Origin: Candidatus Blochmanniella floridana
Lineage (GTDB): Bacteria; Pseudomonadota; Gammaproteobacteria; Enterobacterales; Enterobacteriaceae
Length of the DNA stretch: 32,000 nt
Direction: 5' to 3'
Assembly: GCA_000043285.1 (NCBI GenBank)
Contig: BX248583.1
Span: 660,001 to 692,000 of the forward strand
Of the stretch, positions 5,107-29,172 are shown piece after piece; position 1 is the stretch's first letter, and the number at the start of each line of letters is the position of its first letter. The notes under the pieces were generated by a model that saw only the letters and a program-made list of their open reading frames with translations, was not told where the DNA came from and made no database searches. The translations under genes were made by a program, and so were the position numbers.

Positions 5107-6006
<900 letters not shown>

Positions 6007-7463: not shown

Positions 7464-7525
7464 AAAATAACAAAAACCCTTTCATCTGATTTCATTAAAT
7501 CAGATGAAAGGGTTTTTGTTATTTT
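7464..7525. terminator. perfect 29-bp-stem / 4-nt-loop palindrome overlapping the rpmE 3' end; probable rpmE terminator
   Basis: 7464-7492 AAAATAACAAAAACCCTTTCATCTGATTT is the exact reverse complement of 7497-7525. The 3' arm on the rpmE strand is U-rich. Confidence 0.7.
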
Positions 7526-9259: not shown

Positions 9260-10048
9260 ATGAAAAACCTATCCATAATTGCTAATTGGAAATTAAACGG
9301 AAACAAAAATACAATAACAAATTCATTAATAAATTTAACCACTCAATTAACTAACATACCCCAATATATTAAAATAGCTATAGCACCCCCAATATTATAC
9401 ATTGACATGGTTAAAAACCATTTAACATCATATAATAATAAAACAATCGAATTATGTTCTCAAAACGTTGACATACACTTATCTGGAGCGTTTACAGGAG
9501 ATATCTCAGCATCTATGTTAAAAGACTTATCTGTAAAATACGTATTAATAGGCCATTCTGAAAGAAGAATATATCATAAAGAAAATAACTCATTAATAGC
9601 CCAAAAATTCTCTATAATAAAACAAACAGAACTTATTCCTATTCTATGTATCGGAGAAAATAAAGAAGAACGAGATTCCGGGTCTACACAATCAATTTGT
9701 ATACAACAAATTGATTCAATTATCAAATTAGTCGGTATAAAAGCATTTGAAAATACAATTATTGCCTACGAACCCGTATGGGCTATTGGCAGCGGATCTA
9801 GCGCATCCCCACGTAACGTACAATCAATTCATCAATTTATTCGCAACTACATCGCTCAATATGATAAAACCATAGCTAACCAAATATCAATTCAATATGG
9901 AGGATCTATAACCACCGACAATGTTTTAGAATTCATTACTCAAAAAGATATCGATGGAGTACTAGTTGGCTCTGCATCTTTAGATATAAGAAATCTTATA
10001 AAAATAATAAATCTATCATCAAATTTAATCAAAAAAACATACCAATAA
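9260..10048 (+). CDS. tpiA: triosephosphate isomerase
   Basis: 262 aa ORF with TIM motifs (ANWKLNG, IGHSERR, AYEPVWAIGSG, QYGGS). Confidence 0.95.
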   Translation: MKNLSIIANWKLNGNKNTITNSLINLTTQLTNIPQYIKIAIAPPILYIDMVKNHLTSYNNKTIELCSQNVDIHLSGAFTGDISASMLKDLSVKYVLIGHSERRIYHKENNSLIAQKFSIIKQTELIPILCIGENKEERDSGSTQSICIQQIDSIIKLVGIKAFENTIIAYEPVWAIGSGSSASPRNVQSIHQFIRNYIAQYDKTIANQISIQYGGSITTDNVLEFITQKDIDGVLVGSASLDIRNLIKIINLSSNLIKKTYQ

Positions 10049-13232: not shown

Positions 13233-13674
13233 AACATCATAAATACATACAAAAATTTACTGTAATTTAACAACAATACATACAAACCTAATTAACTCAC
13301 TCTAAACATTTAATAAAACCATCTCATTCATTAAATCTCAAAATACTACTATCTAATTTTTAAACAGACAAAAACACAAAATTAACTCATCTTATTCAAC
13401 CAATACCATTCTTCCTATCACACTCTAACAACAATAAAATACCTAAATATACAACATATACACTTAACAAAACTACTATATTTATTACTTACATCTATAC
13501 CAATAGATACACATAACTAAATTCAATCATAAAAACAAAAATATCCTATACTATAATAATTATATTACCAAATACAAATTTTAAAATATAAATTTAATTT
13601 AAATTTCATATTCAACATTATACTAATATATTACCAAACCAAACATGTCGTAATCATTAAAAATAAAACCAACT

Positions 13675-13968: not shown

Positions 13969-14412
13969 CTATTTTTTCAAATTCAATAAAGGAAATCCAC
14001 CATCTACCCAAGAAGAAATACCCCCTTCTAATACATATACTTGCGTAAATCCTAATCTATTTAGATCTTTTTTAACTGAATACAAAAATCTGTCACTCGA
14101 ATTATACACAAGAATCAACGGATTATTCTTCAACCGACTACCCAAAATAAAATCATTCTCCTTTATATCTTTAATAGATATATTAATACTATTAACAATA
14201 TATCCAGAATAATACTCTTCCGAATTACGCATATCAACCACTACAGCACCTTTTTTATTTATTAAAAAAACTGCTTTCTCACACGAAATTTTAAATCCAC
14301 TATACATCCAATTCATATAAAAAATATACAATATTATAACTAACAAAAAACACCATACTAACATTAACACTAAATGGTTTTTACAAAACAACAACATTTC
14401 TTGAAAAAACAT
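13969..14412 (-). CDS. yibN: membrane-anchored rhodanese-domain protein
   Basis: 147 aa ORF with an N-terminal hydrophobic helix plus a rhodanese fold. Position next to grxC as in E. coli. Confidence 0.8.
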   Translation of the reverse strand: MFFQEMLLFCKNHLVLMLVWCFLLVIILYIFYMNWMYSGFKISCEKAVFLINKKGAVVVDMRNSEEYYSGYIVNSINISIKDIKENDFILGSRLKNNPLILVYNSSDRFLYSVKKDLNRLGFTQVYVLEGGISSWVDGGFPLLNLKK

Positions 14413-14679
14413 AATTACACCAAATATATTAACATAATATTATAATTATAATTTCTATAACTAAAACAATCTTCTTTACATTTTATCTAATACTTCACTG
14501 TTACAATATCATTTTAACTAAACAATAATTTTATTTTAACAAATAAAATTATAATATACTTACATATACATAAATTTTATGATAATTAATCAATACCAAA
14601 ACATTTTTAAACCAAAAAGTAACTTTTACATCCAAACAACAAAAAATTTAACAACAAACATAACTAATTAAAATAATAA

Positions 14680-14710
14680 TTGACAAAAACTTTTAATCCA
14701 GTAATACTAT
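14680..14710 (+). promoter_or_regulatory. possible sigma70 promoter for hldD-waaF-waaC (TTGACA at 14680-14685, weak -10 candidates at 14702-14710)
   Basis: A perfect -35 hexamer is rare in this G-poor stretch. The -10 match is weak (TAATAC or TACTAT). If used, the transcript would begin just upstream of the 72-nt palindrome. Confidence 0.25.
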
Positions 14711-14732
14711 ATCTATTATTATAATGGTGTTG

Positions 14733-14804
14733 ATTTATAGTGTAACAATACTCAACACCCGTGACTCCTTAGTCACGGGTGTTGAGTATTGTTACACTAT
14801 AAAT
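14733..14804. repeat. perfect 34-bp-arm palindrome (4-nt centre CCTT) with GC-rich core
   Basis: 14733-14766 ATTTATAGTGTAACAATACTCAACACCCGTGACT is the exact reverse complement of 14771-14804. It lies between divergent genes, 33 nt upstream of the hldD ATG, and has no flanking U-run. Confidence 0.95.
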
Positions 14805-14837
14805 AAATATAGATATATTAAATATATTATTTAGTTT

Positions 14838-15773
14838 ATGATTATAGTTACCGGAGGGGCAGGTTTTATTGGAAGAAATCTTATTAGAAGATTGAACAAA
14901 ATTCAAAGGACAGATATCTTGGTTGTTGATAATTTACGAAATGGAAAAAAATATAAAAATTTAGTAGGATTGCATATTTCTGATTACATAGATAAGCACT
15001 GTTTTATAAAAAGATTATTAAATAATTCTAATTATTTAAAAAATATAGAAGTAATATTTCATGAAGGAGCTTGTTCGAACACTTATGAATGGAATGGAAG
15101 ATATTTAATGAATAACAATTATCAATATTCTAAATCATTACTTAATTATTCTGTTGAAAATTCGATTCCTTTTATATATGCATCTTCTGCTTCTGTTTAC
15201 GGAAAAAATATTTATTCTTCTAATACATTTGATAATAATGAAAACCCTTTGAATATTTACGGTTATTCTAAATTTTTATTTGATCAATATGTTCGAAGTG
15301 TTTTAACAAAAGTTTCTTCTCAAGTTTGTGGATTGCGGTACTTTAATGTTTATGGACCTTATGAAAATCATAAAGGGGCTATGGCAAGTATTATTTTTAA
15401 TATATATCAAAAAATCATACATAGAAAAATCCCTGTTTTATTTATTGGTAGTAGAGATTTTAAACGAGATTTTATATATATAGATGATGTTGTAAATATT
15501 AATATATGGATGTGGGTTAATAAAATATCTGGTATTTTTGATTGTGGAACTGGTGTTTCTGAATCTTTTACATTACTCGCTGATATTGTGTTAAAATTTT
15601 TGAATTATGATTCAATTCAATATGTTCCTATGCCTTATAAAATAAGACAACATTATCAAACATTTACAAAAGCAAATATTTCTTATTTAAGAAATATAGG
15701 ATATGATTTTTCTTTTATTAAATTAAGTGAAGGTATTCATCGATATTTAAATTGGTTAATTCATAATAATTAA
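14838..15773 (+). CDS. hldD: ADP-L-glycero-D-manno-heptose 6-epimerase
   Basis: 311 aa ORF starting MIIVTGGAGFIGRNL (NAD Rossmann), with the YGYSK catalytic motif. Collinear with E. coli HldD/RfaD and followed by waaF-waaC. Confidence 0.94.
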   Translation: MIIVTGGAGFIGRNLIRRLNKIQRTDILVVDNLRNGKKYKNLVGLHISDYIDKHCFIKRLLNNSNYLKNIEVIFHEGACSNTYEWNGRYLMNNNYQYSKSLLNYSVENSIPFIYASSASVYGKNIYSSNTFDNNENPLNIYGYSKFLFDQYVRSVLTKVSSQVCGLRYFNVYGPYENHKGAMASIIFNIYQKIIHRKIPVLFIGSRDFKRDFIYIDDVVNINIWMWVNKISGIFDCGTGVSESFTLLADIVLKFLNYDSIQYVPMPYKIRQHYQTFTKANISYLRNIGYDFSFIKLSEGIHRYLNWLIHNN

Positions 15774-16892: not shown

Positions 16893-17873
16893 ATGAATGT
16901 GTTAATTATAAAAATTTCTTCTATGGGGGATATAATCCATACTTTACCTGCAATAACAGATGCATCTAATTCTATACCTAATATAATGTTTGATTGGGTT
17001 ATTGAAGAGACTTTTTCTGCCATTCCAAGATGGCATCCATCTGTACAACAGATTATTCCGATAAAATTAAGAACTTGGAAAAATAATTGGTATTCATTAG
17101 ATTCTTGGAAAGAATATAGGTCTTTTATAAAAAAAATAGTAAAAAAAGAATATGATGTAATCATTGATGCTCAGGGTTTATTGAAAACAGCTATATTTGT
17201 AACTAGGGTAGCTAAAGGGATTAAACATGGTTTGGATTCTGTTAGTGCTACAGAGCTGATGAGTTGTTGGTTTTATGATCATTGTCATTTTGTAAAAAAA
17301 AATCAACATGCAATTGAACGTATTCGAAATTTATTTGCAATATGTTTACAATATTCAGTACCATTAAGTATAGGAAAATATAATATTAAGAATTTTTTTA
17401 ATTATTATAAAAATCAACATAATATCGTGCCTTATATAATATTTTTTTGTGTTACTACTTGTTCTAAAAAACAGTGGCCTAAATTATATTGGTATAATAT
17501 AATTCAAAAAGCATTGAATTTAGGTTATCATATAAAAATTCCATTTTGGACTGTAAGTGAAGAGCTATTTGTAAAAAAGATTAAAAAACATTTTAATCAA
17601 GTAATAATATTATCACGTTTAACTTTACAAGAGATTGCAATACAGATTTTAAAATCTACAGCAATTATATCTGTTGATACTGGATTAAGTCATTTAGCAG
17701 CAGCTTTTGATTGTCCTAATTTAACATTATATGGTCCAACTGATCCTAAACTTGTAGGAACATATGGTGGTCGTAATCAATTAATTTTAAAATCTAAATC
17801 TAATGATATGAGGCATCTTACTCCGGATTTTGTTTGGAGTACGTTTGAAAAAAATTTCGATATTTTAAAATAA
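16893..17873 (+). CDS. waaC: LPS heptosyltransferase I
   Basis: 326 aa ORF starting MNVLIIKISSMGDIIHTLPAITDA..., which matches the E. coli WaaC N-terminus. Confidence 0.92.
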   Translation: MNVLIIKISSMGDIIHTLPAITDASNSIPNIMFDWVIEETFSAIPRWHPSVQQIIPIKLRTWKNNWYSLDSWKEYRSFIKKIVKKEYDVIIDAQGLLKTAIFVTRVAKGIKHGLDSVSATELMSCWFYDHCHFVKKNQHAIERIRNLFAICLQYSVPLSIGKYNIKNFFNYYKNQHNIVPYIIFFCVTTCSKKQWPKLYWYNIIQKALNLGYHIKIPFWTVSEELFVKKIKKHFNQVIILSRLTLQEIAIQILKSTAIISVDTGLSHLAAAFDCPNLTLYGPTDPKLVGTYGGRNQLILKSKSNDMRHLTPDFVWSTFEKNFDILK

Positions 17874-18181: not shown

Positions 18182-19472
18182 GTTTATATTATATATGTTT
18201 GTATATAATATTATTATATACAGTATTCAACCTATCATATGGATTAGATTATTGTGGCGTAGTAGATTTGTACCGACGTATCGTCAGAATTTAGGGGAAC
18301 GTTATGGTTTTTACTGTCATAAAAATATTAAACTTAATAGTATAATAATACATGCTGTTTCAGTTGGAGAAACTTTATCAGTAATACCGTTGATCTATAA
18401 ATTGCGAAAAAAGTATCCAGATGTTATCATTACACTCACTTCTATGACTCCTGCTGGTTTAGAAATGGCTTATAAGTTATCAGCATATTATCATCATGTA
18501 CAATGCATGTATCTTCCTTATGATTTATTTTTTTCTGTAAAACGATTTTTAAATTATATACAACCTAAATTAGTTATTATTATGGAAACAGAATTGTGGC
18601 CAAACTTAATCAATGAATTATATAAACGTCGAATTCCTGTAATTATTGCAAATGCTCGTTTATCAAATATCTCTTTTAAAAAATATAAAATATTTAATCG
18701 ATTTTTTTATTATATTATGCAACGTATAAATACCGTAGCTGTTCAAAGTAAAGAAGATGCATTTCGGTTTTTTAGTTTAGGATTTAAAAAAAATCGATTA
18801 AATATTGTGGGTAATTTAAAATTTGATGTTAGTTCTAACAAAATTAATCTAAAAAAAATTTTATCTTTTGAAAAAATTAAAATTGAAGGCCGTTTGGTTT
18901 GGATAGCTAGTAGTACTCATAAGGGAGAAGAAATAATATTATTAACAGTGTATAAACGACTTTTAAAATCTTTTTCTAATTTACTCTTAATTCTTGTACC
19001 TCGTCATTCTGAACGTTTTAGTGATGTGATTAATATTACTAAACATGCAGGATTTTCTTATGTTGTGAGAAGTAGTGGTGTTATACCTACTAAAGATATA
19101 CAGGTGTTTATTGTGGATACTATAGGAGAATTAATGTTTTTATATGAAATTTCAGATGTAGCATTTATTGGAGGAAGTTTAGTTCGACATGGAGGACATA
19201 ATCCATTAGAAGCCGCTGAGTATTCAATTCCTTTAATTATGGGTCCATATATTTTCAATTTTAGGGATATTTGTAATAAGATGTATAGTTTAAATGGTTT
19301 AATTAAAATTACTGATACGAAATCTCTAATTCATATTATGCATATGTTGTTAAAAAGTAAAGATCGTCGTTTGTATTATGGTGGTTGTGCTTTTAATGTA
19401 TTTAAGAAAAATCGAGGAGCTTCATATAAAATATTAAATATTATAAGTCACTATTTGGTAAAAAATTCTTGA
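18180..19472 (+). CDS. waaA: 3-deoxy-D-manno-octulosonic acid (Kdo) transferase
   Basis: 430 aa ORF collinear with E. coli WaaA (IQPIIWIRL...GERYGFY...SVGE...HGGHNPLEAA). An alternative start at the Met 5 codons downstream is possible. Confidence 0.93.
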   Translation: MFILYMFVYNIIIYSIQPIIWIRLLWRSRFVPTYRQNLGERYGFYCHKNIKLNSIIIHAVSVGETLSVIPLIYKLRKKYPDVIITLTSMTPAGLEMAYKLSAYYHHVQCMYLPYDLFFSVKRFLNYIQPKLVIIMETELWPNLINELYKRRIPVIIANARLSNISFKKYKIFNRFFYYIMQRINTVAVQSKEDAFRFFSLGFKKNRLNIVGNLKFDVSSNKINLKKILSFEKIKIEGRLVWIASSTHKGEEIILLTVYKRLLKSFSNLLLILVPRHSERFSDVINITKHAGFSYVVRSSGVIPTKDIQVFIVDTIGELMFLYEISDVAFIGGSLVRHGGHNPLEAAEYSIPLIMGPYIFNFRDICNKMYSLNGLIKITDTKSLIHIMHMLLKSKDRRLYYGGCAFNVFKKNRGASYKILNIISHYLVKNS

Positions 19473-19530
19473 ATATTATTTCATTGATTTAATTTTTAAA
19501 TCAATGAAATAATATTCAAGAATTTTTTAC
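19458..19530. terminator. perfect 35-bp-stem / 3-nt-loop palindrome between convergent waaA and rpmG; probable bidirectional terminator
   Basis: 19458-19492 is the exact reverse complement of 19496-19530. It contains the waaA stop (19470-19472) and the rpmG stop (19527-19529), and is followed by T7 on the + strand. Confidence 0.75.
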
Positions 19531-22047: not shown

Positions 22048-22109
22048 TATTTTTAAAATTTATTTATATTTATTTTTATAAAAATAAATATAAATAAATT
22101 TTAAAAATA
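22048..22109. repeat. 62-nt perfect, loop-less, pure A/T palindrome
   Basis: 22048-22078 TATTTTTAAAATTTATTTATATTTATTTTTA is the exact reverse complement of 22079-22109. Confidence 0.9.
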
Positions 22110-22159
22110 TAACAAAAATAAGTTTTTTTGTATAAAAAAACTTATTTTTGTTATTTTTT
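22109..22159 (+). terminator. intrinsic terminator downstream of yicC: perfect 21-bp stem, GTAT loop, T5 run
   Basis: 22109-22129 ATAACAAAAATAAGTTTTTTT is the reverse complement of 22134-22154. Followed by TTTTT. An A-run upstream makes it potentially bidirectional. Confidence 0.75.
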
Positions 22160-22522: not shown

Positions 22523-22957
22523 ATGAACAGATTAACAGATATTGCAAATATGGTAGAATCTTTGTCTCGGATTTATCATCGTCTTCGTAAAGAAATTAAT
22601 GGTCAGTTAATTAATGAAGGCCTATCTATGTCTAAAATGAAAATTTTACATCTTATAACTACTGGTAAAACCAGTGCAACAGATATTAAAAATTATATGG
22701 GATTTTCATCAAGGACAGTAGTTACTGTACTTGATGCGTTGGAAAAAGATGAAATGTTACGTCGACAACAAAGTCTTACAGATCGTCGTGTAAAGTATGT
22801 ACATATCACAAAAAAAGGACAGGAGAAATTGATTATAGCTAAATGTACATATAATATTATTTTAGATCGTATATTTGCTCCTTTATCTGATGTACAATTA
22901 AAGAATTTTTATGAAGTATGTAATTTATTGGAAATCCAACAAAAAATAGCACAATGA
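22523..22957 (+). CDS. MarR-family winged-helix transcriptional regulator
   Basis: 144 aa. Family pattern visible: HTH region (SATDIKNYMGFSSRTVVTVLDALEKDEMLRR) followed by a wing (LTDRRVKYVHITKKGQEKL). Composition matches the neighbouring genes. No E. coli counterpart at this syntenic position. Confidence 0.75.
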   Translation: MNRLTDIANMVESLSRIYHRLRKEINGQLINEGLSMSKMKILHLITTGKTSATDIKNYMGFSSRTVVTVLDALEKDEMLRRQQSLTDRRVKYVHITKKGQEKLIIAKCTYNIILDRIFAPLSDVQLKNFYEVCNLLEIQQKIAQ

Positions 22958-23073: not shown

Positions 23074-23125
23074 TAAATACAAACTACTAACTATCCATAT
23101 ATGGATAGTTAGTAGTTTGTATTTA
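23074..23125. repeat. 52-nt perfect loop-less palindrome between the MarR-family gene and gmk
   Basis: 23074-23099 TAAATACAAACTACTAACTATCCATA is the exact reverse complement of 23100-23125. No U-run follows. Confidence 0.9.
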
Positions 23126-29120: not shown

Positions 29121-29172
29121 TATTGATTTTTCTATGATTCATATACTTATATGAATCATAGAAAAATCAATA
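29121..29172. repeat. perfect 25-bp-arm palindrome (2-nt centre) downstream of ubiD
   Basis: 29121-29145 TATTGATTTTTCTATGATTCATATA is the exact reverse complement of 29148-29172. About 127 nt past the ubiD stop. Confidence 0.9.

Follow-up and report, generated by a model that had tools for sequence, protein, structure and literature searches.

A perfect palindrome of 72 nt (14733-14804) lies between the divergent genes yibN and hldD of the ant endosymbiont B. floridanus, within the 32,000-nt stretch of DNA analysed here (hereafter the window; coordinates are positions in it unless another genome is named, and palindromes, their parts and the skew change point are given without a strand). The explanation that we favour, with a probability of roughly 0.6, is that this palindrome is specific to its lineage, is maintained by replication template switching, is situated in the leader of hldD and has at most an effect at the mRNA level. 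Long perfect intergenic palindromes would, under this explanation, both arise and stay perfect by template switching: on a hairpin, the polymerase would for a short time use one arm as the template for the other, changes would thereby be mirrored between the arms, and a quasi-palindrome could be perfected in one step. The 72-nt palindrome adjoins the skew change point on the right and is most likely within the leader of hldD-waaFC that would be transcribed from a TTGACA-17-AATACT promoter at 14680-14708. Any effect would then fall on the hldD-waaFC mRNA, where the palindrome would form a 34-bp stem in the 5′ UTR with a bearing on stability or processing, and not on replication initiation.

The two arms, each 34 nt long, are exact reverse complements around CCTT, as the original prediction had described. 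The left arm (14733-14766) consists of 12 A, 10 T, 8 C and 4 G, the loop or spacer CCTT takes up the 4 nt at 14767-14770, and the right arm is at 14771-14804; perfect pairing ends at G14732/A14805. Block shuffling of the window, repeated 100 times, gave perfect hairpin arms of 15 nt at most. The fold of the palindrome has an energy of -38.7 kcal/mol as DNA (z -16) and of -62.2 kcal/mol as RNA (z -11). The inner part is G+C-rich, again as predicted: the core CACCCGTGACTCCTTAGTCACGGGTG (14756-14781) has 16 G+C in 26 nt, compared with 18% G+C in the non-genic DNA of the window, and it is the only non-genic, non-tRNA stretch in the window that is as rich in G+C. The core sequence is single-copy in the window. 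Two further candidate features were rejected. An imperfect extension to 51-nt arms (86%) adds 10 matches in 17 outer positions, which by our estimate is about what chance gives in A+T-rich DNA. The 8-nt direct repeat GGTGTTGA (14726 and 14778), considered as a template-switch footprint, is expected about once by chance, also by our estimate.

The palindrome is wholly contained in the yibN-hldD spacer (14413-14837). Its left neighbour is a yibN-like rhodanese gene on the minus strand (13969-14412), and on its right hldD, which encodes ADP-glyceromanno-heptose 6-epimerase and is the first gene of hldD-waaF-waaC, runs on the plus strand (14838-15773). The distance from the end of the palindrome to the hldD ATG (14838) is 33 nt, and the predicted location between divergent genes, 33 nt upstream of hldD, is thus confirmed. 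No T-run follows the palindrome on either strand, and a terminator scan found no terminator-like site; together with the divergent orientation of the neighbouring genes, this agrees with the earlier view that it is not a conventional terminator. The gene order of the window is ilvE, ilvG, tRNAs, metF, metB, rpmE, fpr, tpiA, pfkA, cysE, gpsA, grxC and yibN in the left part, and hldD, waaF, waaC, waaA, rpmG, rpmB, dut, yicC, a marR-like gene, gmk, glnA, polA, ubiD and ubiB from hldD on. A gap of 440 nt between gpsA and grxC (13233-13674) is the place of secB in most relatives, and the supplementary gene table of PMC3017870 lists secB as lost from both B. floridanus and B. vafer. The MarR-like gene (22523-22957, 144 aa) is the only regulator-like gene in the window and has long palindromes on both sides; the label MarR-like rests on Pfam tags of orthologues, with no NCBIfam match.

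The 72-nt palindrome is one of seven perfect hairpins in the window, whose arms are 21, 25, 26, 29, 31, 34 and 35 nt long. Background hairpins in the window have arms of up to 12 nt, none has perfect arms of 13-20 nt, and the histogram of arm lengths is bimodal; the seven long palindromes are a discrete class. All seven are perfect at the DNA level, contain no G:T pairs and are unrelated to one another in sequence, and the 72-nt palindrome, with 12 G:C pairs, is the most G+C-rich of them. The other members are a palindrome with 29-nt arms that overlaps the rpmE stop codon (7464-7525), one with 35-nt arms that spans the convergent stop codons of waaA and rpmG (19458-19530), a 62-nt perfect palindrome of A+T only downstream of yicC (22048-22109), one with 21-nt arms adjoining the latter (22109-22154), one with 26-nt arms and no loop located 26 nt upstream of gmk (23074-23125), and one with 25-nt arms downstream of ubiD (29121-29172). 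These six are found within about 130 nt downstream of a gene 3′ end, two of them (at rpmE and at the convergent waaA/rpmG pair) spanning stop codons, and the 72-nt palindrome is the sole exception. The short spacer between the marR-like gene and gmk holds a perfect palindrome not only in B. floridanus (23074-23125, 26-nt arms) but also in B. vafer (19082-19136 of its contig, 25-nt arms); the position is kept, the two sequences are unrelated, and the B. vafer palindrome is G+C-rich.

Previous counts of large palindromes in Blochmannia genomes gave 20 for B. floridanus (62-104 bp, median 76), 10 for B. vafer and 6 for B. pennsylvanicus, almost all of them lying between genes (PMC3017870). The criteria of that study, as re-implemented here, call for arms no shorter than 30 nt with up to 3 mismatches, a gap of no more than 20 nt and a location that is intergenic at least in part. 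The 72-nt palindrome falls within them, having arms of 34 perfect nt (39 nt with 3 mismatches), a gap of 4 nt and a wholly intergenic location, and it is almost certainly one of the 20 palindromes counted in B. floridanus. Its class and the putative origin spacer in which it lies were already known, and the individual description of this palindrome is new. By similar criteria there are 5 palindromes in the 32-kb window against about 0.9 expected from 20 in the 705-kb genome, a comparison that mixes two methods; as no more than a lead, it suggests that palindromes may cluster near the putative origin and the relocated-origin region. Copies of the sequence were sought elsewhere. A 20-nt word from the arm, searched in a collection of genome contigs that does not include the B. 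floridanus genome, gave only a chance match in a Saccharibacteria MAG, a scan of metagenomes found no copies of the arm, and BLASTN against E. coli gave no match.

To compare the region among relatives, we used the orthologous region from 11 other Blochmannia. These are B. vafer (L001), B. chromaiodes (L002), B. ocreatus (L010), the NCBI genomes L012 and L013, and the Logan assemblies L004, L006, L007, L008, L009 and L011. No counterpart of the 72-nt palindrome was found in the yibN-hldD spacer of any of the 11 relatives. The nearest hldD to that of B. floridanus among them is 76% identical in DNA. An alignment of the yibN-hldD spacers of four species, the comparison proposed with the original prediction, is saturated and uninformative, and pairwise local alignments of the B. 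floridanus spacer with those of nine relatives are no better than shuffles. Long perfect palindromes are also found in divergent spacers elsewhere, namely in rpmB-coaBC of L002 and L012 and in yibN-hldD of L012.

Changes in other Blochmannia palindromes point to the way in which such arms stay perfect. Between L002 and L003, a near-identical pair, 20 alignment columns differ in 15.3 kb, and 5 of the 20 are located in the 1.75% that is palindromic, where about 0.35 columns are expected (P ~ 3×10−5 by columns and ~ 0.004 by events, our Poisson estimate); L003 is a metagenome contig, and some of the differences at palindromes could be assembly errors. In these palindromes, T>C in one arm is matched by A>G at the mirror position of the other, a loop of a single base is flipped from A to T, and GA is replaced by AG in one arm. 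In L002 these five columns are at 5791, 17584, 17605-17606 and 17615. In the finished genomes L002, L012 and L013, the coaD-rpmG palindrome is kept at the same site, its substitutions and an indel being mirrored between the arms. For the rpmB-coaBC palindrome, arm length is 39 nt in one genome and 45 nt in another, a 2-nt indel being mirrored, and L013 lacks this palindrome. It occupies 18464-18542 in L002 and 18406-18498 in L012, 19 and 10 nt before the coaBC start, and L013 has an 84-nt gap there. Moreover, where L012 and L013 have a quasi-palindrome, L002 has a perfect one with 21-nt arms, and the two states are separated by clustered changes, a 4-nt deletion among them.

Template switching makes quasi-palindromes perfect and gives seemingly compensatory changes in a single event (PMC7202029, PMC8794818), and the Blochmannia of Camponotus are without mutS and recA (PMC4389277). 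The mirrored changes, the flipped loop and the perfected quasi-palindrome are footprints known from replication template switching. The lack of G:T pairs, together with the lack of partly decayed long palindromes in the window, agrees with maintenance at the DNA level. It had been argued that 34 perfect pairs, many of them G:C, imply either selection or very recent formation. This pair of options left out a third route, arm-to-arm templated correction, and because other Blochmannia palindromes bear its direct footprints, 34 perfect pairs alone imply neither selection nor a very recent origin. We infer the same birth and upkeep for the 72-nt palindrome; its own template-switch history is taken from these other palindromes, with the nearest hldD at the distance given above and the spacers unalignable.

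The likely site of the palindrome in an hldD leader is indicated by the promoter-like sequence to its left. A sigma-70-like promoter, TTGACA-17 nt-AATACT (14680-14708, plus strand), points at hldD, and the block to which it belongs, AATTGACA...[AG]ATACTA, is common to B. floridanus, B. vafer and L006. The B. vafer block has the same 17-nt spacer as that of B. floridanus, and in both it is followed by TATAATGG (14720-14727, plus strand, in the window). A 9-mer of the composition of the AATTGACA block is expected in about 1% of such spacers by our estimate. The block has 17-19 nt between its two parts; taken with the TATAATGG that follows it in the first two species, it is located at 14678-14727 in the window, 9243-9287 in L001 and 9823-9855 in L006. 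The suggestion that a TTGACA promoter at 14680 could put the palindrome into the hldD 5′ UTR is thus supported by the shared block. If this promoter is used, the palindrome would correspond to about +17 to +88 of the hldD-waaFC leader. Promoter-like hexamers as such are not enriched in our scan (11 observed vs 6.8 ± 2.8 in shuffles), and the literature searched yielded no usable paper on where transcription starts in B. floridanus. Across loci, about 16 independent long palindromes were counted, and 5 of them have their end 10-40 nt ahead of a start codon; these small numbers hint at a role in leaders or in processing.

The same evidence bears on the possibility that the stem is a selected RNA element, for which template switching would be only the builder: a stem-loop in the hldD-waaFC 5′ UTR serving as an mRNA stabiliser, a site for a double-strand-specific RNase or an attenuator. 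We consider this unlikely, although several observations speak for it. The shared promoter would place the stem near the start of the transcript and 33 nt before the ATG, the predicted RNA fold is very stable, the G+C-rich core suggests constraint, 5 of the roughly 16 long palindromes stop shortly ahead of a start codon, and some members of the class are kept at orthologous sites with mirrored changes. On the other hand, none of the 11 relatives has a stem before hldD, and the complete absence of the comparable rpmB-coaBC palindrome from L013 indicates that such stems are dispensable. The stem also has no G:U pairs and no strand-specific features. In Rfam, searched with a permissive threshold, no family reaches its gathering score; the matches are generic hairpin (miRNA-precursor) models only, which score far below the gathering score and alike on both strands.

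It has been published that B. floridanus and B. vafer are without dnaA and that their GC-skew shift, which is taken as the origin, is inside the yibN-hldD spacer, and the shift of B. pennsylvanicus is at mnmG, about 32 kb from that spacer (PMC3017870, PMC3268670). The original prediction had centred the palindrome on this switch and placed the transition from A/C-rich to G/T-rich sequence within it. The centring is not borne out. Maximum likelihood locates the change point of G/C and keto/amino skew at 14690-14726 (2-lnL support 14664-14727), the published putative origin position, and gives the same result with or without masking of the palindrome. The change point therefore precedes the palindrome by 6-40 nt and the palindrome's centre by 42-78 nt, and the palindrome adjoins it on the hldD side. 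The cumulative G-C minimum is at 14776, which is owed in part to the C-rich left arm and G-rich right arm of the palindrome itself. In the 300 spacer nucleotides that precede 14713, there are 5 G vs 43 C, and this asymmetry is therefore due to mutation rather than to coding. B. chromaiodes has the same divergent spacer without skew, which shows that the switch is not made by gene orientation alone.

B. vafer is alone among the 11 relatives in having the switch in the yibN-hldD spacer. There the change point (L001:9353-9357) is very sharp and follows the -10 hexamer of the homologous promoter by about 85 nt. No palindrome is present at the B. vafer switch, where dyad symmetry has a z of -0.92 under a composition-matched null. 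A value of -2.25, obtained with ordinary shuffles, was discarded, as it falls to -0.92 once the A/C-rich and G/T-rich halves are shuffled separately. A hairpin of the kind associated with origins (pas/ssi or cruciform) would be expected to be conserved with the switch, and nothing of this kind was found at L001:9353-9357. B. vafer thus keeps the switch without the palindrome, the very outcome named in advance as speaking against a special link between palindrome and origin, and that link is not borne out. L012 has a lineage-specific perfect palindrome with 21-nt arms (ATATACTGATGTTATGTCGCA AA ..., 9631-9674) in its yibN-hldD spacer and no skew switch there, which means that the birth of a palindrome in this spacer needs no origin. 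Across the conserved gene block, the G-C skew on both sides of hldD is negative in L004, L006 and L008 and positive in L007, L009, L010 and L011. Blochmannia lineages thus seem to have their origin at three or more distinct positions, and the difference in skew sign between lineages over this gene block suggests that it moved more than once.

These data also bear on whether the palindrome has a part in initiation. As a hairpin on the displaced plus strand, it could be a PriA-type primosome or single-strand initiation site, or a cruciform, at a DnaA-independent origin of the ColE1 or oriK kind that uses the hldD promoter. We regard this as improbable. In its favour, the change point overlies the shared promoter block, and the hairpin begins 6-40 nt further on, in the strand to be displaced by such a transcript; in B. 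vafer, the change point follows the homologous promoter at the distance noted above. Seventy-two nucleotides is a size typical of plasmid and phage ssi hairpins. The Blochmannia of Camponotus are reported in the literature to have lost dnaA, topA and topB, and DnaA boxes (TTWTNCACA) are lacking in the yibN-hldD spacer (0, with 6 in the window vs 6.5 expected by chance), which accordingly contains no DnaA-box cluster and does not resemble a DnaA-dependent oriC. Against it stand B. vafer, with the same switch but neither a hairpin nor significant dyad symmetry; L012, where a palindrome arose in the spacer without an origin; and L006, which has the promoter block and no switch. Six unrelated palindromes are found within 16 kb of the one considered here, and we estimate the chance of finding a palindrome no more than about 40 nt away from a given point in intergenic DNA at about 0.13 (7 palindromes in about 8 kb of non-genic DNA). 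Furthermore, recA is absent from the Blochmannia of Camponotus, although cSDR in E. coli involves RecA. In the literature searched, no paper tying a palindrome to the origin spacer was found. The comparative data thus argue against the 72-nt palindrome as a candidate cis element defining the DnaA-less origin. A more specific version, in which B. floridanus would initiate from a transcript of the hldD promoter (a ColE1- or oriK-like R-loop), the 72-nt hairpin would load the helicase via the PriA primosome and the B. vafer origin would do without the hairpin, appears a little more doubtful still.

An operator for a dimeric DNA-binding protein at divergent yibN/hldD promoters, with the MarR-like protein encoded at 22523-22957 among the candidates, is very improbable. 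The core can be read as 11-bp half-sites 4 bp apart, a typical operator size, each arm carries an outward -35-like hexamer GTTACA with a -10-like hexamer 17 nt away, and a MarR-like gene is present in the window; but 34 bp of perfect symmetry is far beyond what an operator needs, the core has no second copy in the window and no counterpart in the relatives, and the number of promoter-like hexamers is within the range of shuffles. That the palindrome is an artefact, made in the sequencing or assembly of the 2003 Sanger genome, is extremely improbable: palindromes do disturb Sanger sequencing and assembly in Blochmannia according to the literature, but equivalent palindromes are found in independent Blochmannia assemblies from other technologies, and a fold-back chimera, which would duplicate the flanks rather than make a 72-nt insert, is unlikely because the 72 nt sit between unique, correctly syntenic flanks.

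Three observations weigh against maintenance by template switching as the full explanation of the 72-nt palindrome. Its high G+C content (12 G:C pairs) is not accounted for by template switching alone; its position is atypical, not being downstream of a gene 3′ end as in six of the seven; and its nearness to the skew change point may be no coincidence. Arm-to-arm templated mutation, of which Blochmannia palindromes bear clear footprints, offers a mechanistic answer to the presence of perfect palindromes in the fast-decaying, A+T-biased genome of Blochmannia. As for the origin, the skew change point can now be placed to about 40 nt in B. floridanus and to about 25 nt in B. vafer, and in both species it adjoins the promoter-like block that they have in common, being no more than about 90 nt downstream of it. 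For several insect endosymbionts that replicate their chromosomes without DnaA, the mode of replication would become testable if a cis element were defined at the origin.

Several known systems resemble the palindrome in part. ColE1-type transcript-primed origins with pas/ssi sites and R-loop origins (oriK, cSDR) share its geometry of a promoter, a change point and a hairpin of about 70 nt on the displaced strand, here in a genome without dnaA, topA and topB; they differ in that the element is absent from B. vafer and recA is missing. Intrinsic (bidirectional) terminators have a similarly stable stem-loop, and several other palindromes of the window span convergent or tandem stops with A/T runs at the arm ends; unlike them, the 72-nt palindrome is without a U-run and is between two 5′ ends, not after a gene. 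REP/BIME elements and the RPE of Rickettsia are also intergenic palindromic DNA in bacterial genomes, but they are multi-copy families with a shared sequence, whereas each palindrome of the Blochmannia window has its own. The closest parallel is the set of long intergenic palindromes of Blochmannia (Williams & Wernegreen 2010, PMC3017870), which come from the same organism and likewise combine arms of 30 nt or more with a short gap and a location between genes, 72 nt being inside their range of 62-104. That study gives counts and lengths, without listing this element or tying a palindrome to the yibN-hldD origin spacer, and it proposes selection for transcription control or mRNA stability, where we propose templated maintenance instead. 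The 34-nt arms exceed those of typical reported cases of quasipalindrome template-switch mutation and of switch-created hairpins (PMC7202029, PMC8794818), and the event at 14733-14804 is deduced from other palindromes; nevertheless, perfect arms, mirrored multi-base changes and perfection in one step are found in Blochmannia palindromes as well.
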